From an uncultured Methanosarcinales archaeon (GTDB taxonomy: Archaea; Nanobdellota; Nanobdellia; Woesearchaeales; JASKKU01), in assembly GCA_964386095.1 (NCBI GenBank), contig CAYLQM010000001.1, positions 4,372-68,371 of the forward strand: 64,000 nucleotides of DNA, read 5' to 3'. The notes beneath the pieces are model-generated. The model ran no database searches and was not told the DNA's origin. It was given only the letters and a program-made list of their open reading frames with translations. Made by a program: the position numbers and the translations under genes. Shown here one piece after another: positions 6,981 to 54,330 of this stretch; the first letter of the stretch is position 1, and each line of letters begins with the position of its first letter.

Positions 6981-6995
6981 TATGGCTGGGTTGAT

Positions 6996-7643
6996 TTATT
7001 TCATATTTAAAATTTTGTTTAACAGTCCTGAAAGTTCCCTGATGGAACAAGCGTAACATTCTGGATTGTTATATATAATGTCCTCTTCTGTTGAGAACCC
7101 GTCGCAAATTCCTATTTTGATCAGGCCCCTGATTTTATTCCCGTATTCCAAATCATCAATCCCGTCAGTTATGAAGATGCATTCTTGTGATTTGAGCTTT
7201 CGTTTCTCTAATATTTTTCGGATTCGCTTGTCTTTGTGGGATGTTAATGAAAAGCCCTTTATTTCTTTAAAATACTTCAAGATGTCATGTTTTTTCAAAA
7301 TTCTTTTAATAATTGTTTTGAAATTGTTGGATACGATAATTAAATCAATTCCCTGTTTGTTTAATTTCTCAACAAGAGTTTTTATGCCGTGTTTTAATGG
7401 CGGATCAAAGTTCCTTGAGAACACCAAGAATGAATAGGTTAATATCGCAATCTTCTTTATGAAATTAGGATTCTTTTGTTTGAACAAATCCATAATTGTT
7501 TTTTTTCTTAAAGATTTAAATTCATTAATGTCTTTTAATGGTTTGATTTTGAATTTTTTAAGAATTTTATTGAGGTTCTCAAAAGCATAATTCAAAGAAT
7601 CAACAATCACGCCGTCAAAGTCGAATAAAACTGCCTTTATCAT
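6996..7643 (-). CDS. HAD-superfamily hydrolase (phosphatase-like)
   Basis: HAD motif I VLFDFDGVIVDS sits directly after an internal Met, which is the likely true start. The track ORF extends to 7721. Also motif II IVSNN and motif IV ITDGIDD. Confidence 0.7.
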   Translation of the reverse strand: MIKAVLFDFDGVIVDSLNYAFENLNKILKKFKIKPLKDINEFKSLRKKTIMDLFKQKNPNFIKKIAILTYSFLVFSRNFDPPLKHGIKTLVEKLNKQGIDLIIVSNNFKTIIKRILKKHDILKYFKEIKGFSLTSHKDKRIRKILEKRKLKSQECIFITDGIDDLEYGNKIRGLIKIGICDGFSTEEDIIYNNPECYACSIRELSGLLNKILNMK

Positions 7644-7769
7644 ACTTTTTTCGGCCGCTGGCGCATATTTAAAGGTATCGGTTTGCAGTCCTGAATTTTG
7701 GTTGATGCTGTTAAAATCCACAAAACAAAGAGATAGGACATTACGTTCAGAAGCGGTTGATTAAACAGT

Positions 7770-11576: not shown

Positions 11577-12042
11577 AAATCTTTGCAGAATATCCGTTGT
11601 TTTTTTTATTTATTGAAAAATCGTGAAGCGTTATGGCCTTAACTAAATTCAGGCCTTTCTTCTGATTTTGATTTTCACCATAAGCTTCTGCTCTTAGCAG
11701 GAATTTCCTCTTTTCGTTTTTTGTGATCTGCACTTTGACCTTTGAGAAAAACAGTTCATTTATCTCAGATTCGGAGATTAAGGTTGATAAAAAATCATAT
11801 AACAAACCTTCGACGCTTTCATTCTCAAGCCTTATTTTAATCTCTCTTTGTTTTTTTATCTCTTTGATTTTTGCAATTAGCGACAATAATGCAGTGGCGC
11901 AATTCTCAAAAAGTTCGTTAATTGTTTCTCCAAAGGCAACAAACCCTGCATCAGAAGGCAAGTCGTCAAGATATTTAAACTTTGGATTATCTTTTTTATG
12001 CGTGTCCAAATCCTCTTTTTTTGTTCTTTTGGATTTTATCAT
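11563..12042 (-). CDS. Archease (RtcB tRNA-ligase cofactor family)
   Basis: FKYLDDLPSDAGFVAFGETINELFENCATALLSL matches the archease N-terminal region (cf. eHTADiG...G.t.EElFe.aA). C-terminal KAITLHDFSI matches the conserved archease tail. The canonical HTAD is replaced by PSDA. Confidence 0.6.
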   Translation of the reverse strand: MIKSKRTKKEDLDTHKKDNPKFKYLDDLPSDAGFVAFGETINELFENCATALLSLIAKIKEIKKQREIKIRLENESVEGLLYDFLSTLISESEINELFFSKVKVQITKNEKRKFLLRAEAYGENQNQKKGLNLVKAITLHDFSINKKNNGYSAKIFVDL

Positions 12043-12193
12043 CTTTTATGTGGTCTTTTGTCTGAGTTTGATATTGTTTTGTTTGATATTGTTTTAATAG
12101 TGAATTTTATATTTCTTGTCATTTTTTATCTTTCCATTTCCAAAAAGTTTTTATATATCTTTTTTTTCGAATTAAATTATTTAACATTCGCGG

Positions 12194-13288
12194 ATGGTAA
12201 CTATGAAAAAAAAAGAAATTAATTTTTACAAACCCTTGGCGTTTGTTTTGCTAATATTGATACTTTTAGAGTTGCAGTTTAAGTTTAATATATTCTCGGA
12301 CTTGAATGGGATTAAAAGAATGTTCGGTTCTCCTGAATCAGATAAGGTAATGGTTCTTGTAAACAGCGAGAAGATTTATCAGAGCGAGTTTAACGCAACA
12401 TATAACAGCTTGAAAATTGGAAATCCTGCTGTTGCCAAATCTGACGTTTTGCAGTTGTTGATAGAACAGAAGGTTCTCGTTTCCAAGGCGAAGTCTTTAG
12501 GCATTACCGTTAATGATTCTGAAGTGAAACAGTATCTTGACCAATATATTCAACAGGTTGGTGGAGAGCAACAGTTTGATTTTACTCTGAAATCTTTGAA
12601 TTTAAGCAAAGAGATGTTCGAAAATATGTTAAGAGAGCAAATATATATTCAGAAGCTGTTTGAACAATATTACTTTAATCAGATAGATATTGATGATAAC
12701 GAAGTTAATGATTTTGTTGAGCAACAGTTCGGTTCGGCGGATGCAGTAAACGATTCCGTTAAGCAAACTCTTAAGGAAGCGTTGCTTGCGCAAAAGAGAA
12801 TTATCTTTATCCAGGAAAAAGTTGATGAGCTTGTAAAGGAAGCCGACATCAGGTTTTTGGCAGATTTTGAAGATTATTCCGGGATGATTCCGTCTGATGT
12901 TGATGACTCAATTGCAATAAATGATAATTCCATTAAAGATGATAGCACTTTAAAAACGGTTCAAATTGATGTGCCTGAAGATAATTTGAGCATGCAGGGG
13001 AATCGGCAACTCAATTCAGATTTAAAAGAATGCGTGAAAAAGCAATCTGAAGATGTGGATTTTTTCATTATTTGTGATGATTGCGATATGTTCAAATCGT
13101 TTTTTGCTGACAAAGATAGGAAGGCATATATAGGAACTCCGGATGATGAAACTATTTCGTTGATTAAAAATTGTCTGTCCTCGGTTTATCAGGGTTATAT
13201 TCCGGAAGTTATCTGTTTGAATAACGGCAAGTCTTTGACAGATGATTTTGATTCAAAGCTGGAATCATTTTTTGAGGATTGTGTTTAG
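12194..13288 (+). CDS. Secreted SurA-N-terminal-domain-like chaperone with an acidic, Cys-containing C-terminal region
   Basis: Signal/TM LAFVLLILILL. VNSEKIYQSEF...LLIEQKVLVSKAKSLGITVNDSEV resembles the SurA/PpiD N-terminal chaperone domain. No PPIase motif. Confidence 0.4.
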   Translation: MVTMKKKEINFYKPLAFVLLILILLELQFKFNIFSDLNGIKRMFGSPESDKVMVLVNSEKIYQSEFNATYNSLKIGNPAVAKSDVLQLLIEQKVLVSKAKSLGITVNDSEVKQYLDQYIQQVGGEQQFDFTLKSLNLSKEMFENMLREQIYIQKLFEQYYFNQIDIDDNEVNDFVEQQFGSADAVNDSVKQTLKEALLAQKRIIFIQEKVDELVKEADIRFLADFEDYSGMIPSDVDDSIAINDNSIKDDSTLKTVQIDVPEDNLSMQGNRQLNSDLKECVKKQSEDVDFFIICDDCDMFKSFFADKDRKAYIGTPDDETISLIKNCLSSVYQGYIPEVICLNNGKSLTDDFDSKLESFFEDCV

Positions 13289-19393: not shown

Positions 19394-19468
19394 TGCCTCG
19401 CTCGGGATTTGAACCCGAGTCTTCGGCTCGAGAGGCCGAAATGATTGGCCGGACTACACCAGCGAGGC
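19394..19468 (-). tRNA. tRNA-Glu (anticodon CUC)
   Basis: Minus-strand read: GCCTCGCTGGTGTAGTCCGGCCAATCATTTCGGCCTCTCGAGCCGAAGACTCGGGTTCAAATCCCGAGCGAGGCA. Acceptor GCCTCGC/GCGAGGC; anticodon stem TCGGC/GCCGA with loop CTCTCGA; T-arm TCGGG/CCCGA. The D-region GGTGTAGTCCGGCCAATCAT is typical of archaeal tRNA-Glu. Confidence 0.85.
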
Positions 19469-23204: not shown

Positions 23205-25694
23205 TTATGTTGTATAACTGTCTCCTAAAATTACTGGATCATCGAATCCAAGTTTTGGAAGCGAGGCAAAATATGGTGAGTTAAGATAATAATTATACAC
23301 TTTCGATTGATAAAGATTTGCCTTTTCTAATACTTCCTTAAAGTAAGCCGCTGTTTCAAGAACCCTTCGTGGATAAAATCTGCTTTGATCGGGAATGTGA
23401 ATGTCTGCTGCTGCAGCTGCATTCTCCAATGTTTCTCCAAGCTTTTCCTTGTCCCTCGCTCCCGGATATTTTTCTAAGAAATTATCTACATTAGATGGTC
23501 CCCAGTTGTATGCGAGTAATGCAACACCTAAGTTGTTATTATATCTTTTTATTAAATTTTTTAGGTATCGCACTGCAACAACCATATTTGGTTCATATTT
23601 GTTCATATCCTCCCACTCGTATCCTTCACCAAAGTCTTCCCAAACTGCATCGGAAACTTGACAGACTCCCTTGATGTTTTTAAGTCCTTCTGAGTTAGTT
23701 ATTTTGATTTCTTTGCCGTTTTCTTTTTCACCCAAACGATGCTTCTGTTGGATGCCACCTTCAATTGTTGCCAAGCCCATGAGAAGTGCAGGATCAAAAT
23801 TATTTTCCTCTGCAACCTTCTGAGCTGTAGAATAAAGTATTGGATAATCACCGATCAATTCAGCATAGGTTTTGCTAACCTTGTTGTTAGAAAATTCTGT
23901 TTTTTCTATTTTTTCAACGAATTCTTCATCAGCCTTTGCTGAGAGAGTTTTTTTTTTAATTACTTTAACCGCGGGACTTGAGATTTCGTATTCATATTTT
24001 ATTTTGGTATATACTGGCAGTACGGCTTTATAACTTTCAGAAAGAATGTTGCTGTCAATAGTCATAATGCATGGCAAAATGTATTGGTCGCCTTGTTTTA
24101 TTAAGTTCACTTCCTCAATACTTTCGAAGCAATGATAAGCTCCTTGTAGTGTGCTTGTGTCGTCAAAACCGAAATCCGAGAAACAATTCTTTCCTGTTTC
24201 TTCAAGGCCACAATCTGATAGATGTATTTCTTTTGGAGCAAGTATCTTTACATTCTTAATCTCCTTAAATCTTCCACTTCCACTGTTTCTTACGGAAAGG
24301 ATAAACATGTGTTTGTTGTTTTTGGTTGAAATTTGAATGGGATATTCACTCATTTCCCCATTGGCAGATAATCCTACAACAACAGGACCTGAAGAACTCT
24401 TGGTTGATTGGGGTCCATTGAGAAAACCCGATTCTTCAAGATAAGGATTTTTGTTTTGAGCAATGTATTCATATAACTTTTGCTGTTGCATAAAGTAAAA
24501 TTCTCGACTTGCAAATGTGGAAAATTCATAAATTACGTTGGCCTTTAGGGAAGCTTGATAGCTCTTATCAAAAGATATAGCTTCTGAAGGGATCTCGCAA
24601 TTAAGGATTTGGTAACTTAAGGCATTTCTCAAAGGAGCTGGCTCGTCGCAATTAATGCTGTAGCCATTGTCAATGTCTCCAGAAATGGAGTCTATTCTAA
24701 TGGTGTACTTCTCGGTGTTATTAAGGATTTCTCTGGGAATTTGATTCTGACTAGCGCCCTTAAATGATGCACTTATTTTTAACTCAATTTTCTCATTTTC
24801 ATCTACATAAGGCGGCAAAGGTAATGCTGAGGTTATTTTCACTTCTAAAGCTTGTTGCTTGGCGTCATATTGTCCTCTGTCTGATTGGAATGGAGCAATT
24901 CTTTCATTGATCCAGCTTCCGTTTATTAGTCTCTTGATTGGATTAATTATTGAATTTTTAAAGGAACCCCAGAAAGCTTTTGAACCTTCTTTCAAGCGTT
25001 CTGTGATGCTTTTCATCGCAATTTTAGCTTGAATTTGTTCTCCAGGATTGAGCCCTGGAACAGATATCTGCGATGAAATCCTTTGAATATAAGGCCAGGA
25101 CATAAGTGCGAGGAATATTAAAAAAATGGCTATAATCTTTCTAACAAAAGGTGTTGTGGAAGGTCTCTTATAGCTTGAATACAATAGTGCGAACAAGGGC
25201 CATATTGGTAGTAATATCCTGTTCACCAAGAAATATGGATTATTAATCATTCTTGACAGAAGGGGAAAGAAATATACTTCAATCACAAGAATTAGACCAA
25301 AAGCAATGATGTTTCTAAACAGGGCTGTCAAAAAGCCTTCTCCTTCATTCCTCAAAATTGAAAAAATCATTACGAAAAATAGAGCTATCCAAAAATGAAT
25401 TGCATAAACTGAGGAAATGTAAGAATAACCAAACATGATCCCGTCGATGAAAATGTGCTGGAAAATCGTAATTAGAATGAACAGGTCGTAAACATCATAT
25501 GGAAAAAAAGAGCGCAAGAACGCGAACAATCCTTTCCCAACTTTCTTTCCCATTCCAAAACCAACCCCCCCAATTACTCCTGCTGCAAGCTGAGGGCTTA
25601 TCATTCGTGGTGTGTTGAGAAAACCTCCGATTTTTTTAAAAGCGCTACCAATTACGCTCCCAAGTCCTTTAAGAAGACTAGCCTTCTCGCTCAT
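23205..25694 (-). CDS. Large polytopic membrane protein (829 aa) with a C-terminal lytic-transglycosylase (SLT/GH23 lysozyme-like) domain
   Basis: ~7 N-terminal TM helices, a large non-cytoplasmic middle region, and a C-terminal SLT-like segment: LLMGLATIEGGIQQ...SEGLKNIKGVCQVSDAVWEDF...VAVRYLKNLIKRY...LLAYNWGPSNV. Compare the SLT signature ES...GLMQ...AYNaGpG. Confidence 0.5.
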   Translation of the reverse strand: MSEKASLLKGLGSVIGSAFKKIGGFLNTPRMISPQLAAGVIGGVGFGMGKKVGKGLFAFLRSFFPYDVYDLFILITIFQHIFIDGIMFGYSYISSVYAIHFWIALFFVMIFSILRNEGEGFLTALFRNIIAFGLILVIEVYFFPLLSRMINNPYFLVNRILLPIWPLFALLYSSYKRPSTTPFVRKIIAIFLIFLALMSWPYIQRISSQISVPGLNPGEQIQAKIAMKSITERLKEGSKAFWGSFKNSIINPIKRLINGSWINERIAPFQSDRGQYDAKQQALEVKITSALPLPPYVDENEKIELKISASFKGASQNQIPREILNNTEKYTIRIDSISGDIDNGYSINCDEPAPLRNALSYQILNCEIPSEAISFDKSYQASLKANVIYEFSTFASREFYFMQQQKLYEYIAQNKNPYLEESGFLNGPQSTKSSSGPVVVGLSANGEMSEYPIQISTKNNKHMFILSVRNSGSGRFKEIKNVKILAPKEIHLSDCGLEETGKNCFSDFGFDDTSTLQGAYHCFESIEEVNLIKQGDQYILPCIMTIDSNILSESYKAVLPVYTKIKYEYEISSPAVKVIKKKTLSAKADEEFVEKIEKTEFSNNKVSKTYAELIGDYPILYSTAQKVAEENNFDPALLMGLATIEGGIQQKHRLGEKENGKEIKITNSEGLKNIKGVCQVSDAVWEDFGEGYEWEDMNKYEPNMVVAVRYLKNLIKRYNNNLGVALLAYNWGPSNVDNFLEKYPGARDKEKLGETLENAAAAADIHIPDQSRFYPRRVLETAAYFKEVLEKANLYQSKVYNYYLNSPYFASLPKLGFDDPVILGDSYTT

Positions 25695-37929: not shown

Positions 37930-39003
37930 ATGGCAAGATACAATGAAGATGACAAATTAAAAAAAGCGCATGATTATGTTTTCATAGAACCAACCGTGGA
38001 CCTTGCGGGATGGCCGGAGGTTAAAGGTTATGATTTTGAAAAAGGCTTTGATTTCTGGGATTTTTTGAAAAGTTATTATTGCACAGGATTTCAAGCGACC
38101 TCATTGTATAGAGCAATTACGCTTATAAGACAAATGCGCAGGGAGAAAGCAACTATTTTTTTGGGTTATACCTCAAACATGATTAGTTGCGGGGTCAGGG
38201 AACAAATAAAGTACTTAACGAAAAATAAATTTGTTAATGTTCTGGTTACCACAACGGGCGGTTTGGAGGAGGACATTATTAAAGCCAAAAAACCTTTTGT
38301 TCTGGGAAGTTATGATGCTGACGGCAGTTCTTTAAGGGAAAAGGGCATTAATAGAACAGGAAACCTTTTTATTCCTGATGACAGATATCTATTTTTTGAG
38401 GCTTTTATTAATGGATTGCTTAAAAGATTGTATGAATTAAAGAAAGTTTGGACCATATCCGAGTTTGTATATGAAATGGGTCGCGAGTTGGAGATGTTAG
38501 CAAAAAGTGATAAAGAAATAGATGTTGAAAGTTCTGTTACTTACTGGGCTTACAAGAATTCCATTCCTTATTTCGTTCTGCCTTTAGTGGACGGTTCCCT
38601 GGGGGATATCATTTATTTTTTTAAGAGAACTCACCCGGATTTTATGATTGATGAAACCAGTGTTATTATTCAAGTCAATAACATTGCGATGAATGCTGAA
38701 AAGTCAGGCGTTGTTGCTTTAGGTGGTTCTGTGCCAAAGCATTTGGTAGCTAATGCAAACCTGTTTAGAGAAGGTGCAGATTATGCTGTTTATGTAAATA
38801 CTGCTATGGAATACGAAGGTTCAAACGCTGGAGCGAATCCTGATGAGGCGGTTTCATGGGGCAAATTTAAAGCAAAAAGGAAAACAGTTAAAATCTATGC
38901 CGAAGCGAGTTTGGTCTTTCCATTGATTGTGGCAGGCGCTTTTTATCTTCCATTAACGGCTTCAGACCTAGATTTCAATGAAAAATCTGAAAAGAAAATT
39001 TAA
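37930..39003 (+). CDS. dys: Deoxyhypusine synthase
   Basis: GYTSNMISCGVREQIKYL...VNVLVTTTGGLEEDIIK...GINRTGNLFIPDD closely parallels the DHS NAD-/spermidine-binding core. Confidence 0.85.
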   Translation: MARYNEDDKLKKAHDYVFIEPTVDLAGWPEVKGYDFEKGFDFWDFLKSYYCTGFQATSLYRAITLIRQMRREKATIFLGYTSNMISCGVREQIKYLTKNKFVNVLVTTTGGLEEDIIKAKKPFVLGSYDADGSSLREKGINRTGNLFIPDDRYLFFEAFINGLLKRLYELKKVWTISEFVYEMGRELEMLAKSDKEIDVESSVTYWAYKNSIPYFVLPLVDGSLGDIIYFFKRTHPDFMIDETSVIIQVNNIAMNAEKSGVVALGGSVPKHLVANANLFREGADYAVYVNTAMEYEGSNAGANPDEAVSWGKFKAKRKTVKIYAEASLVFPLIVAGAFYLPLTASDLDFNEKSEKKI

Positions 39004-39120
39004 TTTTAAAGATTGTTTTTAAGCGTTTTATAGCGCTTTTTAATTTTTAAAAATCCAAATAATCCAAATAAATCCAAATGTCAGCATGATTTTATGAAAT
39101 AACCGGAAAGAGGGAATAAA

Positions 39121-39645
39121 ATGGCATTGAAACGAACAGAACAAATGGTTGAAAGCGAATACAACATACATTTAAAGAACATCATCTTAATGGTAGGATT
39201 GTTTACCGGATTTGTTTTCATAATCACTTTTTCAACGATTTATGTTTCAGACGCCATTAAAAACAATAATGCGTGCGGATGCGTAATTCCGATCCCAGTG
39301 ATGATTTTGATATTGTCTTCCTTGGGCGTGTTCGTGGGGGCGATAACCTCCTATCTTTTCCTAATTCGCTTATTCGCGGTTAGAGAGAATTTGGACAAAC
39401 AAAAACAATTAAGTTCCAAGCTTCTGTTCAGATTACTCGAACCAGATGAGCGCAAGGTTATAAAATTTCTTGTAAAAAACAACGGAACGGTTTATCAATC
39501 AAAGATTTCATCGCTTTTAGATGACCGAGTGAAAGCTTACAGGATTATTTCAAGGTTAAAGGACTCAGGTCTAATTAAGGTTGTTAAGGATCAAAAGACC
39601 AATTTAATCAGCATGGAAAAAGATTTAATAGAACTTCTTAAATGA
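39121..39645 (+). CDS. Membrane-anchored winged-helix (MarR/TrmB-like) protein
   Basis: Two TM helices, then ERKVIKFLVKNNGTVYQSKISSLL...RIISRLKDSGLIKV (wHTH-like). Confidence 0.4.
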   Translation: MALKRTEQMVESEYNIHLKNIILMVGLFTGFVFIITFSTIYVSDAIKNNNACGCVIPIPVMILILSSLGVFVGAITSYLFLIRLFAVRENLDKQKQLSSKLLFRLLEPDERKVIKFLVKNNGTVYQSKISSLLDDRVKAYRIISRLKDSGLIKVVKDQKTNLISMEKDLIELLK

Positions 39646-39738
39646 TTCATTAGGTTTTAAAGTGTTGTTTTCAACAAATCTTTTAGATTTCCTTTGAATT
39701 TTTCAAAATCTTTTTAAATCTCCAGTGTAGTACTGTTT

Positions 39739-42700
39739 TTGAGTGAGAAAATGCAAAATAGAAAATCTGTAACATTAAAGGTTAGTGGAGCCATTTCAGA
39801 CGATGTGAATAAAGGCATAGTTAGAATAGATGTTTCCTATTTGCGCGATATTGGGGCGAGGCCGGGCGACATTGTAGAAATTGAAGGCAAACGCACGACT
39901 GTGGCAATTGTTGATAGAGCTTACCCGAGCGATATTGGTTTAAACATCATAAGAATGGATGGTCCCACACGAAGGAATTGCCAAACGAGCATTGGCGAAT
40001 TTGTTAAGGTAAGGAAAGCTGATTTTAAGATTGCAGACAAGGTTATTATTGCCCCAGCTCAAGAAGGTGTGGTTATACAAGCTCCAAACTCATTTTTCAA
40101 GAGCGGATTAATTGGCAAACCTGTTGTTAAAGGAGATATTGTGTCTATTGGAGGAAGCAACTCAAGAACAAGAATCTTCTCGCAAAGCAGATTCTTTGAT
40201 GATTTGGATATATCCAGGATAATCAATCAGAACTTAAATAGATTTGGTTTTAGTGATTTAAAATTTGTAGTGGTTGATGTTAATCCTAAGGGAACTCCTG
40301 TTCTTATAACTGATACAACAGAGGTAGTCTTTAATCCAGAAGCCGTTCCAAAGGTTGAATCTAAGGCGTTGGATGTTACTTATGAAGACATTGGCGGTTT
40401 GAGTGAAGAGATTAGGAAAATTAGAGAAATGGTTGAATTGCCTTTGAGATATCCTGAACTTTTTGAAAGATTGGGAATTGATTCGCCAAAAGGCGTTCTT
40501 TTGCATGGTCCCCCAGGTACAGGTAAAACAATGCTGGCTAAAGCTGTAGCAAATGAGACAAATGCGCATTTTATCCTTATAAACGGCCCTGAAATTATGA
40601 GCAAATATTATGGTCAGAGCGAACAGAATCTTCGTCAGAAATTCGAGGAAGCTGAAAAGAATGCTCCAAGCATAATCTTTATTGATGAAATTGATGCAAT
40701 CGCTCCTAAGAGAGAAGAATCCAAGGGCGAGGTTGAGAGAAGAGTTGTTGCGCAACTCTTGGCATTGATGGACGGGTTGAAATCTCGTGGCAAGGTTATA
40801 GTTATTGCTGCAACCAACATCCCAAATCAAATAGACCCTGCATTAAGGAGACCTGGAAGATTCGATCGAGAGCTAGAGATTGGCGTCCCCGATATGAATG
40901 GGAGGAAACAGATTCTAAAGATTCATACGAGAAACATGCCAATACTTCCTCAAGTTGAATGGTTTGAACTTAAACCTGCTTTGAAAAGTAGAATCTCAGA
41001 GACGCTTAAAAAACTTAAACAGGATAAACGAGACGTGGAAGTTAAATTAAAAGAATGCGATAAAGAATTTAAGAAATATACTACTATGGTGCAAGAGATA
41101 ACTAAAAATATAAACGAACTCAATGAAAAAAGGTTTAACAGTGGGGAAGGCAAGTTTATTGAGCTTTCAAATAAGATTAAAGAGCGCACATCTGATAAGA
41201 AATTCTATGAAATGAGATTAGAGGAACTTAAACGGGATAAAGATAATTATACCTACAAACTTGAGCAAATTAAACAAAATTCTGAGCATTTATCAAACAT
41301 TCTTGAGCTTATAAAGAATGTTAAGTATGTTGATGGATTATTGTTGGGGCTGTCTTATGATGAGAACAACTTGTTAGAGAGCAAATTGAAGGATTATGTC
41401 CTGGGACTGTTGTCTAAGAATAATGCTGATATTAAGGATTTTAAGATAGCTCATTCATTCAGGAAGTTTAAAGATGAAATCTTGGAAAAAGTTCAAAGTT
41501 CCGTGTTGAAAAAGAAAATTTCAGCGTTGGAGTTTGGCGGCGGCAAGTTTAATAAGGAGACCTTAAAAATTCTGTTGGATTTAATTAATGATAAGGTGTT
41601 AAAAGGGAAATTAAAGATGTTTATAGAAATTGCTGATGATGATGCGGATTTAACCAAATTGATTACAGGAAACTATCTGCCATATGATCTTAAATCCTCA
41701 ATATTAAACGGGCTTAAGGAAAATATTTTAAATGAATTGGCCGAGAAGACTCACGGTTTTGTTGGGGCTGATTTGGCTGCGTTGGCTAAGGAAGCTGCAA
41801 TGGCTGCCGTTAGAAGAATTCTGCCGGACATTATGAAGACAGAGGAAGAAAGTGTTTCTGAAGACATTCTCAACAGCGTTTATGTAACCAATGAGGATTT
41901 TAGGGAAGCTTTGAGGGTTGTCAGACCAAGCGCTTTGAGGGAAGTTTTTGTAGAAGTTCCTAATGTTGCTTGGGAAGACATCGGTGGATTGGAGGATGTA
42001 AAACAAGAATTAAAAGAAGTTGTGGAGTGGCCGCTTAAGCATAAAGAGGCATTCAGAAGACTTTCAATAAAACCGCCTAAGGGAGTTTTGTTGTATGGTC
42101 CGCCTGGTACAGGCAAGACTTTGTTAGCTAAAGCAGTGGCAAGCGAAACCTCGTCAAACTTTATTCTTATTAAAGGTCCTGAGTTGATTAGTAAATGGGT
42201 TGGCGAGAGTGAAAGAGCAATTCGTGAAATCTTTAAGAAGGCGAGGCAGACATCTCCATGCGTGATTTTCTTTGATGAAATTGATGCAATTGCTTCAAGG
42301 AGGTCTTCATCTTCGCAAGACTCAAAAGTTAATGAAAGAGTTGTTAATCAACTTTTAACGGAAATGGATGGTGTTGAAGAGTTGAATGATGTAGTGATTA
42401 TCGCTGCAACCAACAGGCCTGATATTCTGGATACAGCACTTTTAAGACCGGGCAGGTTTGATAGAATTATTTTAACTCCTGCTCCGGATTTGAAATCCCG
42501 GCTTGAAATCTTTAAAGTACATACTAAGGGAATGCCTCTGGCTAAGGATGTTAGTTTGGATGAACTTGCCGAAAAAACTGAAGGGTATTCTGGTGCAGAT
42601 ATTGAAGCGATATGCAGGGAAGCAGCTATGCTTGCTTTAAGAGAAGATCTCAATGCAATGGAAGTAAAAATGGAACATTTTGAGGGTGCTCTTAAACGAG

Positions 42701-42813
42701 TTTATCCGTCCATAACTTCTGAAATTATGAAAGCTTATGCTGAACTCCAAAAGAAGTTTAGGGCAGCGAAGGGCGAGGAATTAAGATTAAACAAACCGTC
42801 GTATTATGGTTAA
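39739..42813 (+). CDS. cdc48: Cdc48/VCP-like AAA+ ATPase (N domain + D1 + D2) with a large insertion in the D1 lid
   Basis: N domain ([23 protein letters not shown]). Two Walker A motifs GPPGTGKT and two Walker B motifs (IIFIDEIDA / VIFFDEIDA). SRH regions ([21 protein letters not shown] / [21 protein letters not shown]). It is 1024 aa against a usual ~740. Confidence 0.85.
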
Positions 42814-42851
42814 TTCCATTTCCTTTTTTAATTTTTGATTACGGTGATGAA

Positions 42852-43061
42852 ATGAACGATTTTTTATTGTTTTATCTGGCAGTTGTTGGACTGCTTGCAT
42901 TGTATTGGGTTCTTTTTGGTGAGAAACGGTTTCAGAAGATGATTAAGAAAGATTGCAAATCTGATGAAAACTTAGATGAAAAAAGCGAGTATAAAATTAA
43001 CAGCAAAAAAATAAATACCAGTTCAAATAAGAAAATGGAGAAACAGGATAAAACCGCTTAA
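42852..43061 (+). CDS. Small membrane protein (69 aa)
   Basis: One TM (LLFYLAVVGLLALYWVLF) plus a Lys-rich tail. Its stop is 1 bp before the nif3 start. Confidence 0.3.
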   Translation: MNDFLLFYLAVVGLLALYWVLFGEKRFQKMIKKDCKSDENLDEKSEYKINSKKINTSSNKKMEKQDKTA

Positions 43062-43062
43062 A

Positions 43063-43833
43063 ATGATGCGAGACAAAATCATCAGGTTTTTGAACAATCA
43101 GTTGAACGTTAATGAAATAGATGACCAAAGCGTTAATGGAATTCAAGTTGACGGAAGCAGGTATGTGAACAGAGTTCTTACTGCTGTTGATGCTGACATT
43201 AATTCAATTAAAAGGGCCGTAGAATTGAATGTTAATTTGATGATAGTCCATCATGGCTTATTCTGGAAGAAGAATGAAGTTATTATTGGACCTTTGTATG
43301 AGAAGGTTGCTTTATTGATTAAACACAATGTCTCTTTGTATGCAGTTCATCTTCCTTTGGATATCCATGAAGAGTTTGGCAACAATATTCAGATTGTAAA
43401 AGCTCTTGCGTTAAGAAATATCTCAAAATTCGCAGAGTACCGTAACCTGTTTTTAGGCTATTCTGGCGAGGTGGAGTTGTCGAATATAGGGTCCTTTAAG
43501 AGTTTTGTTGAGGAATCTCTTAATACAAAAATTAAGCTATTTAATTTTGGTTCCAAAGAGGTAAAAAAAGTTGGGGTAGTGTCCGGAGCAGGCGGGTTTT
43601 CAGTTTCTCTTGCTCCTCAGTATGGAGTTGACACTATAATCACCGGTGAGGCGAGTTACCCTGAGATTCTTCTTGCCAGAGATTTAGGCATAAATCTTAT
43701 GCTTGCAGGTCATTACGAAACTGAGGTTTTTGGCGTTAGGGCTATTGCAAATAAACTGAACACTCTTTTTGGACCAGATGGGTTGAGTGTTGAGTTTTAT
43801 GAAAGTAATTCAAACAAGAATTTTCAAGTTTAA
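43063..43833 (+). CDS. Nif3-family dinuclear-metal-centre protein (GTP cyclohydrolase 1 type 2 homolog)
   Basis: NIF3 family hallmarks MIVHHGLFWK and LAGHYETE, and a ~250-aa size. Confidence 0.7.
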   Translation: MMRDKIIRFLNNQLNVNEIDDQSVNGIQVDGSRYVNRVLTAVDADINSIKRAVELNVNLMIVHHGLFWKKNEVIIGPLYEKVALLIKHNVSLYAVHLPLDIHEEFGNNIQIVKALALRNISKFAEYRNLFLGYSGEVELSNIGSFKSFVEESLNTKIKLFNFGSKEVKKVGVVSGAGGFSVSLAPQYGVDTIITGEASYPEILLARDLGINLMLAGHYETEVFGVRAIANKLNTLFGPDGLSVEFYESNSNKNFQV

Positions 43834-43882
43834 TTTTATAGTTGTTTGAGGCGGATGCTTAAAAACTTAATTTGCGGGGATT

Positions 43883-45238
43883 TTGATAAAAATGGGCGAT
43901 TTGAAACGGGTCAGGATAATTACAGATAAAGGTTCTTTTGAAGGCATACATTTAACCGATGTTGCCAAAGATAACAGGAAATTCTTGCTGCTTAAATTGG
44001 ACAACGGTTATAATATCGGAATTGCTTACGATAACATTAAAAAAAAGGAAGTGTTGTCTAAATTGTCTGAAACTGCTTGGCAAACAGGAGATGAAAGCAA
44101 AGCACAATCAATTGATTCACGAAATTGGGATTCTTCGCTGGTTATTATTCACACCGGAGGCACTATTGCATCCAAAATTGATTATGAAACCGGGGCGGTC
44201 AAGGCGCTATTTAATCCTGAAGAAATTGTTGGACTGTTCCCTGAAATAAAAGGAGATTACAATATAAAGTCAAAGCTGTTGTTGAACATATTTTCAGAAG
44301 ACCTTAATTTCAAAGTTTATAACCTAATACTTAAAGAGATTGAAAATCTGGTCAAAAGCAAAGAAAACATACGTGGAATTATTCTTACTCACGGTACAGA
44401 TACTCTGCATTACACAAGTGCCGCATTAAAATTCGCTCTTGAAAATTTACCATTTCCAATTGTGCTGGTTGGCGCGCAACGCAGCTCGGATAGACCTTCA
44501 ACGGATGCAAGATATAATTTAATTGCGGCAGCCAGTTTCATAAACTATGTTTATGAGAATCGCTTAAAATCCGATGTGTTTGTTTGTATGCACGGTTCTG
44601 TAAATGACGATTTTAATTATATATTTGATGCATTTAATGTTCGAAAGATGCACACTTCCAGGAGGGATGCTTTTAAGCAGATTAACGACGAACCTTTGGC
44701 GAAGGTTTTTAAGAATGGAGATGTTAAGATTATTAATGATAAATTGAAAAAAGCAGATTCTACTAAGACTAAAAAGAATTTTAAAGCAAAATATTACCGA
44801 GAATCGCTTAAGATAGGCGTTCTTTATGCCCATCCAAACCTGTTTCCGCAAGAGATTTTAGCTTTCAGCAGGTTTGATGGTCTAATTTTAGCTGGCACAG
44901 GGTTGGGCCATTTAGCTATAAATAAGTCGGAAGACAATGTTACTATTGATAACACCAAAAATCTTCAGGCATTAAAACAGCTTATTAATTCAGATACTCT
45001 TGTCGTGGTTGCACCGCAAACGATAAATGGAAGAATTAATCTTAATGTTTATTCCACAGGAAGATTGTTGAGGGAAGCAGGCGTTCTCGGAAATTTGTGC
45101 GATATGACGATTGAAACGGCTTTTATTAAACTTGCCTATCTGCTTTCGAATTATTCCGTTGAAAAAGCAAAAGAACTATACGAGAAAAACCTATGCGGCG
45201 AGATTAATGAGAGAAGCAGATATTTCCAGGACTTTTAG
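43883..45238 (+). CDS. gatD: Glutamyl-tRNA(Gln) amidotransferase subunit D
   Basis: Asparaginase-type motifs IIHTGGTIAS and ILTHGTDTLHYTSAAL, plus a GatD-type N-terminal extension. Confidence 0.9.
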   Translation: MIKMGDLKRVRIITDKGSFEGIHLTDVAKDNRKFLLLKLDNGYNIGIAYDNIKKKEVLSKLSETAWQTGDESKAQSIDSRNWDSSLVIIHTGGTIASKIDYETGAVKALFNPEEIVGLFPEIKGDYNIKSKLLLNIFSEDLNFKVYNLILKEIENLVKSKENIRGIILTHGTDTLHYTSAALKFALENLPFPIVLVGAQRSSDRPSTDARYNLIAAASFINYVYENRLKSDVFVCMHGSVNDDFNYIFDAFNVRKMHTSRRDAFKQINDEPLAKVFKNGDVKIINDKLKKADSTKTKKNFKAKYYRESLKIGVLYAHPNLFPQEILAFSRFDGLILAGTGLGHLAINKSEDNVTIDNTKNLQALKQLINSDTLVVVAPQTINGRINLNVYSTGRLLREAGVLGNLCDMTIETAFIKLAYLLSNYSVEKAKELYEKNLCGEINERSRYFQDF

Positions 45239-45270
45239 GACTTTTAGGAATTGTAATTGCGTGATAAAAA

Positions 45271-47157
45271 ATGATTAAAGTTGAAGAACTCAGGAAATCA
45301 TTAATCACATCAAAAGGCAAAATTGAGGGTCTGGATTATGCTAAGTTGGGTTTTAAATGCGGTTTAGAGATTCATCAGCAATTAAATGTTGGCAAGCTCT
45401 TTTGTGGTTGCGATTTTGACGAAGATGATTTAGTGATTGGCAAGGTTGCACGCGAGCTGACAGTTTCCAAGGGGGAAACTGGAGATATCGACGCTGCTGC
45501 ATCTTTTGAAAAATTAAAGGAATTGGAGATTAGATATAGTGTTGGTAAAAACAGTTCCTGTTTGGTTGAGCTTGATGAGGAACCACCGCACGAAGTTAAT
45601 CCAAGAGCTCTTTATGCAGCTTATCAGTTATCCATGTTATTTGATATGACGATTGTTGATATGATACAATTTATGAGGAAGATAGTAATTGATGGTTCTA
45701 ATACTACTGGATTTCAAAGAACTGCCTTAGTTGCTATGAATGGCAGAATTAAAACATCTTTGGGTGCGATTAATCTTGCGACAATGTGTTTAGAAGAAGA
45801 CGCCTGCAAAATCGAATCAAAGGACGGGTCTCAGGTTAAATACGATTTATCGAGACTAGGCGTTCCGTTAATAGAATTGGCAACCCAGCCGAACATAAAA
45901 AATCCCGAGCATGCAAAAGAAACTGCCGAAACAATAGGGCTTTTGTTGAGAAGCAGTGAATTCGTTAAGCGCGGTCTTGGAACTATCAGACAGGACTTGA
46001 ATGTTTCTATTGAAAACGGCGCGAGAGTTGAAATCAAAGGCGCGCAGGACCTTGAAAACATTCCAAATCTTTTAAGAAATGAAGTCATAAGGCAATTGAA
46101 TCTTGCAAAAGTAAGAGATTACTTAATCAAAAATGTAGACAGGTCTTTACTTAAATTAGAGATTGTGGATTTGAGCCATTGTTTTTCTAATAGCGGATCA
46201 AAGGTAATCAAAAGCGCGTTAAGTAAAAGAGGCAGGGTTTTGGGCATAAGGCTTCCTGGATTTTCAGGAGTTTTGGGGTTGGAATTAAACCCAAATAGAA
46301 GAGTAGGTACAGAGGTGGCTGATTATGCTAAACAAGTTTCAGGCGTTAAAGGATTGTTTCACTCAGATGAATTGCCAGGTTATGGCATTGCTGTTGATGA
46401 AGTGCAAAGAGTGAAAAAAGAACTCTCCTGTTCAAAGGATGATGCTTTTATTATGATTGCAGATATTGAAAAGAAAGCTAAGCTTGCTTTAAAAGCAGCT
46501 TTTAATCGCGTTTCGGCTTTGTTTGATAACATTCCGAAAGAAGTGAGACAGGCCAATCCTGACGGCACAACAAAGTTTTTGAGACCGATGCCTGGCAGTG
46601 CCAGGATGTACCCTGAAACAGATGTGCCTTACATAATCCCTAATTTGAGTTCGGTGAAAAAACCTAAATTAATAACGGAGAAGGTTAAAAAGCTTGTTAA
46701 ATTGGGACTTGACGAGAATTCCGGTAAGCAAATAATCAGGGAGGGTTATTACGACTTCTTTTTGCAGGCAGTCAGTAATTTTAAGGGATTGAAACCTTCT
46801 TTTATCTATTCAGTAATCATCTCAAAGATAAAGGAGCTGCGAAGAATGCATCCGGATTTCAATTACAATTTGTTGGATGAGGAGTTTTTTTCAAACTTGC
46901 TTTCTAATCTGAACGAAAAAAGAATTTCAAAACAAAGCGTTGATGATATTTTGTTGAAAAAAGGCTTGGGCAAACCTGTTGATTTTGAAAAATATGAAGT
47001 TCTTTCCGCGCATAAAATTGAAGAATTTGTTAAGAAAATTCGTGACAGAAATTCCAAGTTAAACTTTAAACAAGCAATGGGCGAAGTCATGAAAGAACTC
47101 CGAGGGAAAGCTGACGGTAAAACAATTGCCAAAATCGTAAGAAAGTATTTCAAGTAA
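45271..47157 (+). CDS. gatE: Glutamyl-tRNA(Gln) amidotransferase subunit E
   Basis: GatB/E core GLEIHQQLN and a C-terminal GatB/YqeY-like tail. 628 aa, immediately after gatD. Confidence 0.9.
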   Translation: MIKVEELRKSLITSKGKIEGLDYAKLGFKCGLEIHQQLNVGKLFCGCDFDEDDLVIGKVARELTVSKGETGDIDAAASFEKLKELEIRYSVGKNSSCLVELDEEPPHEVNPRALYAAYQLSMLFDMTIVDMIQFMRKIVIDGSNTTGFQRTALVAMNGRIKTSLGAINLATMCLEEDACKIESKDGSQVKYDLSRLGVPLIELATQPNIKNPEHAKETAETIGLLLRSSEFVKRGLGTIRQDLNVSIENGARVEIKGAQDLENIPNLLRNEVIRQLNLAKVRDYLIKNVDRSLLKLEIVDLSHCFSNSGSKVIKSALSKRGRVLGIRLPGFSGVLGLELNPNRRVGTEVADYAKQVSGVKGLFHSDELPGYGIAVDEVQRVKKELSCSKDDAFIMIADIEKKAKLALKAAFNRVSALFDNIPKEVRQANPDGTTKFLRPMPGSARMYPETDVPYIIPNLSSVKKPKLITEKVKKLVKLGLDENSGKQIIREGYYDFFLQAVSNFKGLKPSFIYSVIISKIKELRRMHPDFNYNLLDEEFFSNLLSNLNEKRISKQSVDDILLKKGLGKPVDFEKYEVLSAHKIEEFVKKIRDRNSKLNFKQAMGEVMKELRGKADGKTIAKIVRKYFK

Positions 47158-52629: not shown

Positions 52630-54330
52630 TTATTTTTTATTTTCTGAGAAAACATGAGCCCTGTAAACATACACCTCTGTAGAGGAATCTTTCCAACAAT
52701 AAGGGTTCATGCCGCCTTTTATGCAAAGTTGGGTTAAAAACGATTCCTTATCAGGCAACTGCTCCCATACTTGAGGCAGGTAGGTGCTTTGCCTGAAACC
52801 TCTTTTCAATATTACGCCATGAACATTTGGAATAAGCTTGTTTTTCAAATCTTCGGGAGACGAAAATGTAAGTCTTGTTGGTACTGAGAGTGCAGAGATT
52901 TCTATGGTAATATCTTTTAATTCATCTGTTGAAACAGGGTTAAACCTGGGATCATTCACAGCGGCGTTTATTGCGTTGTCCATAACGCATTTATAGAGTT
53001 CTTCTTGAGGTAATATGTGCCCAATGCAACCTCTCAGCATTCCGTTCTTTTCAAGCGTTACAAAACAACCCATCTTTTGTTTTAATTTGTCAGATACCTG
53101 TGATTTATCTACTTTGGGTCTTCTCCCTGTTGCGAGATAAGTTTCAATGGTTTCACGGGCTAATTTCAGCAAAAATTCTTTTTCTTCAGGCGTTAATTCA
53201 ATAACACTATCTTCCGGGTTAGAGAATGCAATTGCCATGTAGCTCACCGAGTTTGTGAAATCGTTTAAGATGTTGCCAGATGCATCATATTTGATTAAGG
53301 TTGTATTTAATTGTTTGTCTTTTATTATGTTTAAAAGTAGGATTATTGGATTCCTGCCACAGATTGTATCTTGGGTTCTTTGGATGAAATTGTAAAAATT
53401 CAATGCGTCCTTGCTTTTAATACTTTCAAAAGCTTGCAAATCAAGTTTTTTAATGTTTTCCTTAACATTATCTGTAAATGGCAAATAACCATAATTTGCA
53501 CCGTAATGAGTGAAATCCGAGCTAACAACTATCAAACTATCATTATCGATGTATTCGTTTAGGGTTTTTGCAATCTCCTGCAAATCAGCATAACTGTTCA
53601 AGTTTCCAACCAACAAAGGAACGATTTCAAAGTCATTTAAACAGTACTGTAAGAAAGGAAGCTCTATTTCGATAGCATGTTCTTTTGAATGCATTTCAGG
53701 AACAAATGTGAAAAGAGGTTTTTTTAATAATTCTTTAACAATGTTTGAGACTTCAATTTTTCCGAGCGGGGTTCTGTAATGAGTAAAGTTTCCCACAGAA
53801 ATCCCCCGAAAGCTTGCATAATGAGATGGCGCCAAAATGAATACTTTCTGGTAGCTTTTATTGCAAATTGTGTTAAAAGCTGTTGAAGCGGTTTGACCGG
53901 AGAAACGCCAACCAGCATGAGGCACTATTATGGCAAAAATGTTTTCTTTTTTTAGTTTGCTGATTGTATTATTAATTTCTTGGATTTCCTTATTGTTTTT
54001 AAAGAAGGTTTCAATCTCGTTAATTACAGCTTCTTTTGTTCTGGGATACCATGAACCTGAGATTGCTGGTTCTCTTACAATTTCTTTAAACTTCGTTGTT
54101 TGTTTATTTGCCAAACCCGTTTCAGTTTTGTTGCCTAATTTCGTGCGAAATACAAGAATAGCAATAATTATGATTAATATCACAAGGGAAATTTTGAAAA
54201 TCGTTTTAATTTCTATAATTTGTTTTTTGCCTGATGTTTTGCTTTTATTCTTTCTTTTTGTCTTTTTGGCGGGTTTGCGAATTTTTGTCATCCTACCATC
54301 GCCCTGGAATTTCAGTATTGCAATATTCAC
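52630..54330 (-). CDS. Memo-like + AMMECR1 fusion protein with an N-terminal membrane anchor (AmmeMemoRadiSam components A+B fused)
   Basis: Basic N-terminal tail and one TM (ISLVILIIIIAILVF). Memo/UPF0103 motifs (SGSWYP..., IVPHAGWRFSGQTA). C-terminal AMMECR1 domain (MGCFVTLEKNGMLRGCIGHILP...VNDPRF). Confidence 0.75.
   Translation of the reverse strand: MNIAILKFQGDGRMTKIRKPAKKTKRKNKSKTSGKKQIIEIKTIFKISLVILIIIIAILVFRTKLGNKTETGLANKQTTKFKEIVREPAISGSWYPRTKEAVINEIETFFKNNKEIQEINNTISKLKKENIFAIIVPHAGWRFSGQTASTAFNTICNKSYQKVFILAPSHYASFRGISVGNFTHYRTPLGKIEVSNIVKELLKKPLFTFVPEMHSKEHAIEIELPFLQYCLNDFEIVPLLVGNLNSYADLQEIAKTLNEYIDNDSLIVVSSDFTHYGANYGYLPFTDNVKENIKKLDLQAFESIKSKDALNFYNFIQRTQDTICGRNPIILLLNIIKDKQLNTTLIKYDASGNILNDFTNSVSYMAIAFSNPEDSVIELTPEEKEFLLKLARETIETYLATGRRPKVDKSQVSDKLKQKMGCFVTLEKNGMLRGCIGHILPQEELYKCVMDNAINAAVNDPRFNPVSTDELKDITIEISALSVPTRLTFSSPEDLKNKLIPNVHGVILKRGFRQSTYLPQVWEQLPDKESFLTQLCIKGGMNPYCWKDSSTEVYVYRAHVFSENKK

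Follow-up and report, generated by a model that had tools for sequence, protein, structure and literature searches.

How an otherwise standard archaeal Cdc48 comes to carry 257 additional residues in the lid of its first AAA ring, and whether these residues could serve the motor, is the question raised by this locus. The gene lies in a window of 64,000 nucleotides, the whole stretch of DNA that was analysed. The original prediction described it as a standard Cdc48 with one interruption, and this is borne out by Pfam, alignment to VAT and p97, the Walker motifs, and the pore loops. The parts of the gene outside the interruption are as follows.

39739..42813, + strand: Cdc48/VAT gene, one unbroken ORF of 1024 codons from TTG
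39772..40341, + strand, aa 12-201: N domain, with Pfam CDC48_N at 12-95 (E=4e-25) and CDC48_2 at 118-201 (E=1.6e-7)
40495..40884, + strand, aa 253-382: D1 large AAA subdomain (Pfam AAA), with Walker A at 257-264, Walker B DE at 316-317, and pore loop SKYYG
40891..40944, + strand, aa 385-402: D1 lid helix alpha5, ending in HTRNMPI, from alignment to p97 (3hu2)
41728..41868, + strand, about aa 664-710: rest of the D1 lid (Pfam AAA_lid_3); the VAT and p97 alignments restart at 660-664
42097..42120, + strand, aa 787-794: D2 Walker A; D2 is otherwise canonical, with pore loop SKWVG
42802..42810, + strand: C-terminal Tyr-Tyr-Gly, read from the sequence against a published pattern (PMC3493965)

The real start of the protein is likely the ATG at 39751 (1020 aa), which is preferred over the TTG at 39739 because homologues begin MQNRKS or MQPRRS at an ATG matching this position. 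A Pfam search of the ORF returned CDC48_N and CDC48_2, which correspond to the N-terminal double-psi barrel and beta-clam domain, and two stretches each of AAA (E=1e-101) and AAA_lid_3. The Walker A motif GPPGTGKT and the Walker B motif DEID each occur twice, and both rings have aromatic pore loops of the VAT type (SKYYG in D1, SKWVG in D2) that are the same in all clade members. The closest PDB entry is Thermoplasma acidophilum VAT (5g4f, E=6e-243), and the alignment to VAT and p97 spans the full length of the protein. The Nc subdomain of the N domain holds about 26 residues (aa 140-165) more than VAT, where the alignment skips from query residue 139 to 166. The C-terminal YYG fits the HbYX pattern of archaeal proteasome-docking ATPases, [LVIMGAPFYW][FY]x (PMC3493965), but the family consensus is Y-[YMFL]-G, and the conserved Tyr possibly stands at position -3. 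The family assignment, made by sequence, is to an intact VAT-type Cdc48 of an uncultured DPANN (Woesearchaeales-like) archaeon.

The ORF is interrupted solely between HTRNMPI (aa 396-402) and ELAEKTHGF. VAT covers query residues 166-402 and 660-1004, and six VAT residues stand opposite query 403-659. Measured between HTRxMP and TxGFxGAD, the spacing is 269 residues here versus 13 in canonical close relatives (256 longer). The junctions read MPI/LPQVEW and NILN/ELAEK, and the bounds first proposed for the insert, 40921-41745 (aa 395-669), bracket it correctly. Its parts, of which the inner divisions are predicted, are given below.

40945..41715, + strand, aa 403-659: the insert as set against VAT, 257 residues, from the VAT alignment
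40960..41310, + strand: predicted antiparallel coiled-coil hairpin, helices at aa 408-466 and 470-524 (H7-65 and H69-123 of the AlphaFold2 model, and heptads)
about aa 467-469, + strand: predicted hairpin turn in the FNSGEG region (AlphaFold2 model)
41311..41682, + strand, aa 525-648: predicted compact helical domain of seven helices and a tiny beta hairpin
41683..41745, + strand, aa 649-669: predicted final helix of the insert, running into lid helix alpha6 (H248-268 of the AlphaFold2 model); the VAT alignment is back at aa 660

An assembly chimera, or an intein, intron, or frameshift that yields a Cdc48 of normal length, could give this arrangement, and the GC content does fall to 0.30–0.33 within the insert compared to 0.40–0.43 in the flanks. 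This drop is accounted for by the composition of the insert, which is rich in Lys, Glu, Asn, and Ile. The 267- to 270-aa form is shared by relatives, as the original prediction had proposed to check, and at least nine contigs, which come from different samples and were assembled independently of one another, have it (carriers P0001-7, P0069, and L001-L008, from JGI, ENA, NCBI, and Logan assemblies). One of these (L001) has the same gene order as the window, with deoxyhypusine synthase, a small ORF, Cdc48, NIF3, GatD, and GatE, and another (L002) retains Cdc48-NIF3-GatD-GatE. With this conserved synteny and a continuous reading frame, neither a chimera nor a frameshift, which the prediction had named among the objections to itself, was found. 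The DNA was also searched for repeats, internal or flanking, that an insertion might have left, and only chance-level matches of 16–23 nt turned up. An intein was considered and rejected: there is no N-terminal Cys/Ser and no C-terminal His-Asn followed by Cys/Ser/Thr, the model is almost wholly helical with one tiny beta hairpin rather than a beta-rich HINT fold, and no intein or HINT family matched in Pfam at E≤10. The earlier statement that the frame is continuous and free of intein motifs thus stands, and together with the protein-level conservation described next, these results effectively refute an artefact or a removable element.

The insert alignment is almost gap-free, with 25%–32% identity and 29 invariant columns. 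Between the window and L001, the insert has a pN of 0.205 and a pS of 0.81; saturation of the synonymous sites (pS about 0.8) rules out a formal dN/dS, and pN is given against pS instead. Recurrence in independent assemblies, constant length, and a pN far below pS all agree with the original view of a genuine inserted D1-lid module, and comparison of these sequences indicates that, within one monophyletic clade, purifying selection acts on the insert, which is translated and keeps its length. A metagenome scan with the full insert alignment gave no match, as the patterns were too degenerate, and a rescan with the globular half recovered four loci, all from already known lineages.

Conservation of this kind bears on a second explanation, which is that a permissive lid loop gains and loses helical sequence by drift and that the 267-aa version folds stably with no specific partner or regulatory role. 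We consider such a tolerated expansion somewhat unlikely. Insert length is constant within three residues down to about 25% identity, with indels of only one or two residues, whereas length usually drifts in neutral segments of low complexity. The low pN relative to pS also argues against drift, as do the invariant polar residues of the globular module (E141, E146, K183, K205, K223, D233, D234, and K259 in insert numbering), which lie in a helical domain whose family-invariant residues follow the pattern G-L-S..E, K, F, K-L, D-D, and G..P. Small DPANN genomes would make 770 nt without benefit less expected as well. The globular part is better conserved than the hairpin in three of four comparisons (70%, 40%, and 38% identity, versus 58%, 23%, and 22% for the hairpin), which speaks for a functional module; for P0069, the value is 24% for both. 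In favour of a tolerated expansion, the insert pN is about threefold that of the N domain and D2 and 12-fold that of D1 (0.017). Invariant residues of the hairpin are mostly a/d core positions, and its surface and tip are poorly conserved, which fits a tolerated segment and makes it less likely that the arm has a specific binding site.

The original prediction had treated the whole insert of about 270 residues as a heptad-patterned coiled coil and had proposed an alignment to delimit it and an AlphaFold model. Alignment set about 257 residues against VAT, and modelling confined the coiled coil to about half of the insert. AlphaFold2 models built on shallow alignments of five sequences gave a pLDDT of 88 and a pTM of 0.70, and 86.6 and 0.78 for a second model. 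The two hairpin helices have block pLDDT values of 83–96, and each arm comprises about 57 residues, or roughly 85 Å, in a hairpin of about 117 aa. Heptads run in register 0 over insert residues ~8-63 and in register 1 over ~64-126, and the peak heptad score is 0.82 compared to 0.725 for the 95th percentile of shuffles. A two-stranded antiparallel coiled coil is therefore predicted for the first ~120 residues only; the other ~145 have no heptad pattern, and of these, about 125 are modelled as a compact multi-helix domain and the last ~20 as a helix toward the lid. The model thus predicts, with good confidence, a two-helix hairpin of about 85 Å followed by a helical domain of about 125 residues that leads back into the lid.

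Relatives of the compact helical domain were absent from Pfam, PDB, and sequence searches, and the 50 Foldseek matches listed for the hairpin are generic coiled-coil folds only. An exhaustive profile search of the insert against 1.84 billion representatives yielded a single match (P0121, E=6e-5), which was rejected as a homologue because it is a repetitive coiled-coil protein with generic coiled-coil similarity. That search found no insert homologues outside Cdc48, which is again as expected for a tolerated expansion; insert-bearing Cdc48s were probably masked in it by insert-less 50% cluster representatives. A word-indexed search with the insert alone returned no match and missed even the near-identical P0001, and this is read as the behaviour of a K/E-rich query and not as absence. 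The same index queried with lid plus insert returned almost solely short partial proteins but revealed 73-aa inserts in Thermococcus.

The insert is not a one-off: in DPANN relatives and in Thermococcus, this loop is also occupied by inserts, and their lengths vary widely. More than 13 residues are held at the D1-lid alpha5-alpha6 loop by 56 of the 119 related Cdc48s compared (17–269 residues), in length classes of 17, 23–28, 85–104, 122–201, and 267–269. The DPANN inserts of 85–201 aa and those of Thermococcus enter at the same point between HTRxMP and TxGFxGAD and are all helical and K/E-rich; the 267-aa version is the longest seen among the compared Cdc48s and alone has a structure prediction, with its hairpin and globular domain. 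Seven Thermococcus-type sequences (P0124, P0125, P0127, P0133, P0174, P0187, and P0206) have 73–74 aa there. Homology between this class and the 267-aa class is unsupported (hhalign probability 0.2%), with only an I-x-P start in common, a feature of 30 out of 54 inserts. The 133-aa insert of P0009 is the one exception, as its last ~55 residues are common with the 267-aa insert (hhalign 91.5%; blastp 43% over 54 aa). No similarity of the 267-aa class to the remaining classes was detectable (hhalign probability below 13%), and homology between insert classes was otherwise rejected. Comparison of these sequences marks the alpha5-alpha6 loop as a recurrent insertion hot spot of archaeal Cdc48, filled mostly by unrelated classes. 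A description of lid inserts in archaeal Cdc48 was not found in the literature. On a core neighbor-joining tree, which is indicative only, the insert classes are interleaved with canonical forms. Repeated gain, loss, and replacement at one site, by classes that are mostly dissimilar, fits a permissive loop with nearly neutral inserts and counts against a functional arm.

The position of the loop points the other way. Residues 155-394 of p97 in 3hu2 align to query 168-406 with an offset of 12, so that N399 is the equivalent of p97 N387, and the insertion begins three residues past it in the alpha5-alpha6 loop. In p97, N387 lies opposite the N-domain residue R155 at the N-D1 interface, and locking this contact inhibits the ATPase (PMC3318706, PMC5102582). 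The loop would sit at the rim of the D1 ring, on its outer side and three residues past the residue that touches the p97 N domain in its "down" position, and from this placement the globular base module most likely adjoins the N-D1 interface. There it may bias or sense the position of the N domain and thereby affect D1 ATPase activity and cofactor coupling, and the hairpin would most likely act as a peripheral arm of fixed length that reaches a neighbouring protomer, a partner, or a substrate. We tentatively favour, at a little under an even chance, this lineage-specific peripheral regulatory or docking arm, a built-in appendage that would be a functional analogue, and not a homologue, of the ClpB/Hsp104 M-domain, the Vps4 beta-domain, and the Rix7 post-alpha7 insert. 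A weak hint toward the regulatory arm comes from clade-specific core substitutions, 15 of 24 of which fall in the N domain or D1 lid, a clustering that could simply reflect lower conservation there. The original prediction had the insert projecting from the ring where adaptor binding would matter; the site is a plausible one for regulation or for adaptors, and the insert may project from the ring and may bind adaptors.

Two further readings were considered. Six arms running along or above the D1 ring could touch neighbouring protomers or each other, forming a crown or belt by which the hexamer is stabilised or entry on the cis side is gated, comparable to repressed ClpB M-domains and the coiled coils of PAN/Rpt. 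A fixed arm of ~85 Å would be comparable to inter-protomer distances on a ring of ~160 Å, ClpB M-domains make head-to-tail belts (PMC4428496), and the Rix7 D1 lid insert touches the adjacent protomer (PMC6355894). Such a ring-level element is nonetheless improbable, as the arm has no conserved surface patches and the D1 interfaces are already 99% conserved between the window and L001, like those of insert-less relatives. More broadly, the loop may be a general slot for an adaptor in cis, into which archaeal lineages have repeatedly grafted helical modules near the N-D1 interface, tuning the position of the N domain, the coupling of the ATPase, or the recruitment of substrates and partners. On this reading, the 267-aa version would be the most elaborate, an arm resembling the ClpB M-domain with a new domain at its base, making an intrinsically regulated or partner-activated motor. 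The reason for repeated grafting would be that archaea, to our knowledge, lack the eukaryotic repertoire of Cdc48 cofactors. We regard this generalisation as unlikely, if less so than the ring-level element.

Cdc48/p97 is regulated through the N domain and the N-D1 interface, where human disease mutations cluster. The protein described here is a natural Cdc48 with a large conserved module, predicted to be folded, grafted three residues from the equivalent of that interface. Its relatives, with 0, 17, 85, 104, 135, 160, 200, and 267 extra residues, form a ready-made variant series suited to asking how lid appendages affect N-domain dynamics, ATPase coupling, and partner recruitment. Should the insert turn out to be neutral, it would amount to a small oddity in how DPANN proteins evolve.

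Compared to T. acidophilum VAT (PDB 5g4f and 5vc7), the protein has the N, D1, and D2 order, Walker motifs, Tyr-Tyr and Trp-Val pore loops, and aromatic C-terminal tail in common. It differs in having 257 residues opposite six of VAT, and in the ~26 extra Nc residues.

In ClpB/Hsp104, which is also a two-ring protein unfoldase, the M-domain is a coiled coil attached laterally to the first AAA ring; in ClpB it controls the motor and provides a docking site for Hsp70 (PMC4428496). The insert could itself be a true equivalent of the M-domain, recruiting Hsp70 or a different chaperone and making Cdc48 a partner-activated disaggregase, a proposal that we consider highly improbable. It has a topological analogy only in its favour, a coiled coil in the small subdomain of the first AAA module (PMC4428496), here between the Pfam AAA core, which ends at aa 382, and AAA_lid_3. 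Against it, the M-domain has four helices in a mixed coiled coil, whose wings are motif 1 and motif 2, whereas the insert is modelled by AlphaFold2 as a two-helix hairpin with a globular domain; no ClpB/Hsp104 chain is among the 50 Foldseek matches listed; the arm surface is not conserved; and the window holds no Hsp70 gene. The ClpB M-domain enters later in the lid than post-alpha5, so the lid loop is apparently a different one. Reviews call M-domains unique to ClpB/Hsp104, and the insert is not homologous to them.

Lineage-specific inserts in or next to the lid also occur in other members of the Cdc48 family, namely Rix7/NVL (D1 lid), Pex1 (D2), and Yta7 (a D2 bromodomain). The Rix7 post-alpha7 insert occupies the docking place of the p97 N domain and matters in vivo (PMC6355894; Cdc48-family inserts also in PMC5070193). 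These eukaryotic inserts are post-alpha7 or between subdomains and comprise ~10–50 aa or a known domain, in contrast to the archaeal, post-alpha5 insert of 257 aa, which includes a domain of no known fold and thereby adds a helical domain of ~125 residues without detectable relatives.

With ClpB, dynein, and Vps4, the insert represents a convergence on an arm grown out of an AAA lid. The stalk and buttress hairpins of dynein emerge from AAA small subdomains and are likewise antiparallel, and dynein motor chains are among the weak, non-significant fold matches. The dynein stalk carries a binding domain at its tip, whereas the tip of the hairpin predicted here has none and is unconserved, and the globular module instead lies at its base.

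The window encodes a Cdc48 in a single uninterrupted frame of 1024 codons when read from TTG. Translation more likely begins at the ATG at 39751, since homologues start with a Met four codons downstream of the TTG; database entry P0001, a homologue of 1020 aa, begins at this ATG, and the actual product is probably also 1020 aa.

Features of the window (positions, strand, description)
930-1001, forward: tRNA gene (Rfam)
4518-10682, reverse: SMC/Rad50-like ATPase (AAA_23, 819 aa) near an Lhr-type helicase (969 aa; DEAD, WH_Lhr, DEAD_assoc), separated by a 241-aa ORF
19394-19468, reverse: tRNA gene (Rfam)
23205-25694, reverse: 828-aa protein ending in an SLT lytic-transglycosylase domain, here in an archaeal (DPANN) genome
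39121-39645, forward: small protein directly upstream of Cdc48; hydrophobic segments at the N terminus, winged-helix-like DUF7343 at the C terminus
39739-42813, forward: Cdc48 ORF
52630-54330, reverse: Memo-like domain and AMMECR1 fused in a single ORF

Pfam identified CDC48_N, CDC48_2, two AAA core, and two AAA_lid_3 domains in the Cdc48, and the closest solved structure is VAT of Thermoplasma (PDB 5g4f, E = 6e-243). VAT residues 140-376 pair with query residues 166-402 and VAT 383-724 with query 660-1004, so that the place of six VAT residues is taken by 257 (aa 403-659, nt 40945-41715). An insertion of about 270 aa at 40921-41745 in the D1 lid had been predicted from sequence, and both its coordinates and the description of its flanks are correct. 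Walker A and Walker B are unbroken in D1 and D2, and the pore loops are of VAT type (SKYYG, SKWVG). A jump from query residue 139 to 166 in the same alignment reflects ~26 more residues than VAT in the Nc (beta-clam) subdomain ([30 protein letters not shown]; window 40156-40233, aa 140-165), which the near-constant core length among relatives suggests are common to most DPANN Cdc48s. The C terminus, YYG, matches the HbYX pattern that marks archaeal proteasome-docking ATPases (PMC3493965), but relatives end in Y-[YMFL]-G. Nearly all of 119 DPANN Cdc48s have this ending, with an invariant Tyr at -3 where classical HbYX has it at -2, and it may be a variant proteasome-docking tail.

The insert is not an artefact. 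Top matches of the protein were Cdc48s of Woesearchaeota/Nanoarchaeota (DPANN), among which eight clusters (P0001-P0007 and P0069, the last truncated at its C terminus) carry a 267-269-residue insert at the identical point. Genome and metagenome scans found additional copies at loci L003-L008, and the insert-bearing sequences derive from different samples assembled by JGI, ENA, NCBI, and Logan. Aligned across three lineages, the insert is nearly gap-free; identity is 25-32%, and 29 columns are invariant. Between the window and locus L001, pN in the insert is 0.205 and pS is 0.81, for which no formal ratio is given because synonymous sites are saturated; pN is 0.076 in the N domain, 0.017 in D1, and 0.068 in the lid plus D2. 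Recurrence in separate assemblies of related genomes, the near gap-free alignment, and a pN far below pS support the original prediction of a genuine inserted domain, and one ORF spans it as described. GC content dips inside the insert because of its Lys/Glu/Asn/Ile-rich composition, and no meaningful flanking repeats were found around it. An intein, already discounted in the prediction, was rejected because neither junction (MPI|LPQVEW and NILN|ELAEK) has intein nucleophiles, a nearly all-helical fold is predicted, and a Pfam search of the insert gave no match.

Cdc48 length was surveyed in 119 close relatives, leaving out P0008. This 993-aa entry has its whole D1 module in exact tandem duplication with identical copies; the duplication probably arose in assembly, and a real three-ring ATPase is less likely. 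Outside the alpha5-alpha6 loop, length is nearly constant at ~743-769 residues (exceptions are one of 795 and the truncated P0069 at 627); the variable part is the spacing from HTRxMP to TxGFxGAD.

Spacing from HTRxMP to TxGFxGAD among 119 relatives
12-13 residues: 63 sequences
17-28 residues: 17 sequences
85-104 residues: 19 sequences
122-201 residues: 12 sequences
267-269 residues: 8 sequences

A neighbour-joining tree of the Cdc48 core recovered the 267-aa class as monophyletic and the remaining insert classes scattered among canonical forms, implying that inserts were repeatedly gained, lost, or replaced. No sequence similarity was detectable between most insert classes. The exception is homologue P0009, whose 133-aa insert matches the 267-aa class over the final ~55 residues (hhalign probability 91.5%; 43% in blastp over 54 residues). 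In Thermococcus, partial Cdc48 sequences have a helical insert of 73-74 aa whose position coincides exactly with that of the 267-aa insert and whose sequence has no detectable similarity to it. More than half of the inserts (30 of 54) start with I-x-P, which may be left over from a shared ancestor or be helix-capping convergence. With the insert as sole query, word-indexed protein searches did not return even the near-identical P0001, and with lid plus insert they gave almost only partial proteins of <600 aa; negatives from such searches with K/E-rich queries are untrustworthy. Those lid inserts of the Cdc48 family that were found described lie after alpha7 in Rix7/NVL and p97 D2; an insert in Pex1 D2 and the bromodomain of Yta7 are known as well (PMC6355894, PMC5070193). 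A literature search found no description of the inserts reported here. The window's Cdc48 thus has a new lid appendage, at an insertion hot spot for which no earlier account was found.

An AlphaFold2 model of the insert built on a five-sequence alignment (pLDDT 88, pTM 0.70) predicts an antiparallel hairpin of two long helices (insert 7-65 and 69-123; aa 408-466 and 470-524), then several short helices, a tiny beta hairpin, and a last helix (aa 649-669) that is continuous with alpha6 of the lid. Modelled separately, the C-terminal 146 residues gave a pLDDT of 86.6 and a pTM of 0.78. The prediction of ~270 heptad-patterned residues was half right: one register covers insert residues ~8-63 and a second ~64-126 (peak 0.82 vs 0.725 for the 95th percentile of shuffles), with none afterwards. 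On the model, the coiled-coil label should give way to a hairpin followed by a globular domain, and this ~125-residue domain has no detectable relatives. Identity to the window is higher in the globular part than in the hairpin in three of four comparisons (70/40/38% vs 58/23/22%); the two parts tie at 24% in the fourth, P0069. Invariant hairpin residues are mostly a/d core positions, and the tip is variable.

The order Cdc48-NIF3-GatD-GatE is kept at two fully read loci, L001 and L002. In L001, as in window 37930-47157, deoxyhypusine synthase and a small ORF also precede Cdc48. The slot of the small upstream gene, whose DUF7343 match is only just under the cut-off (E = 8e-6), holds a 173-aa gene in L001 (1848-2369), and its pairing with Cdc48 may be conserved. 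A 753-aa protein similar to the window's SLT protein lies near the L001 Cdc48 locus (11717-12338); the target of such proteins could be the wall of a bacterial host or prey. L003 (CAYQFL010000031.1), labelled 'uncultured Methanosarcinales archaeon', encodes a Cdc48 of DPANN type whose 270-aa insert has 69% identity to that of the window; the contig is likely mis-binned. Rfam matched nothing in the window except the two tRNA genes.

Alignment to the p97 N-D1 structure has an offset of 12, which equates window N399 in HTRNMPI with p97 N387. In p97, the residue opposite N387 in the coplanar 'down' state is R155 of the N domain; a disulfide between R155C and N387C fixes the N domain in this state and inhibits the ATPase, and the disease mutation N387H shifts the up/down equilibrium (PMC3318706, PMC5102582). 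The insertion begins three residues past N399 and re-enters alpha6 via its best-conserved stretch. This equivalence supports the reading of the position as relevant to regulation, and from it and the conserved return we infer the placement and function of the insert. The globular part would form a base module at the rim of the D1 ring, next to the N-D1 interface, with the ~85-Å hairpin as a fixed-length arm directed away from it; the insert may tune N-domain position or ATPase coupling, or offer a docking surface. Fifteen of 24 clade-specific substitutions fall in the N domain or D1 lid, a weak hint of such a role that could also reflect lower conservation there. The hairpin surface and tip are unconserved and the site is evolutionarily labile, which argues against specific binding by the arm. 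The main rival reading, still plausible, is a tolerated expansion segment with no specific role, against which stand the strictly conserved insert length, the low pN relative to pS, and the invariant polar residues of the base module. The natural series of lid inserts should be useful for studying N-D1 regulation. As a base module and arm acting at the N-D1 interface, the insert would work much as the Vps4 beta-domain does, to which it is unrelated. It would also resemble in its working the ClpB/Hsp104 M-domain (PMC4428496) and the Rix7 D1 lid insert (PMC6355894), both likewise unrelated to it.
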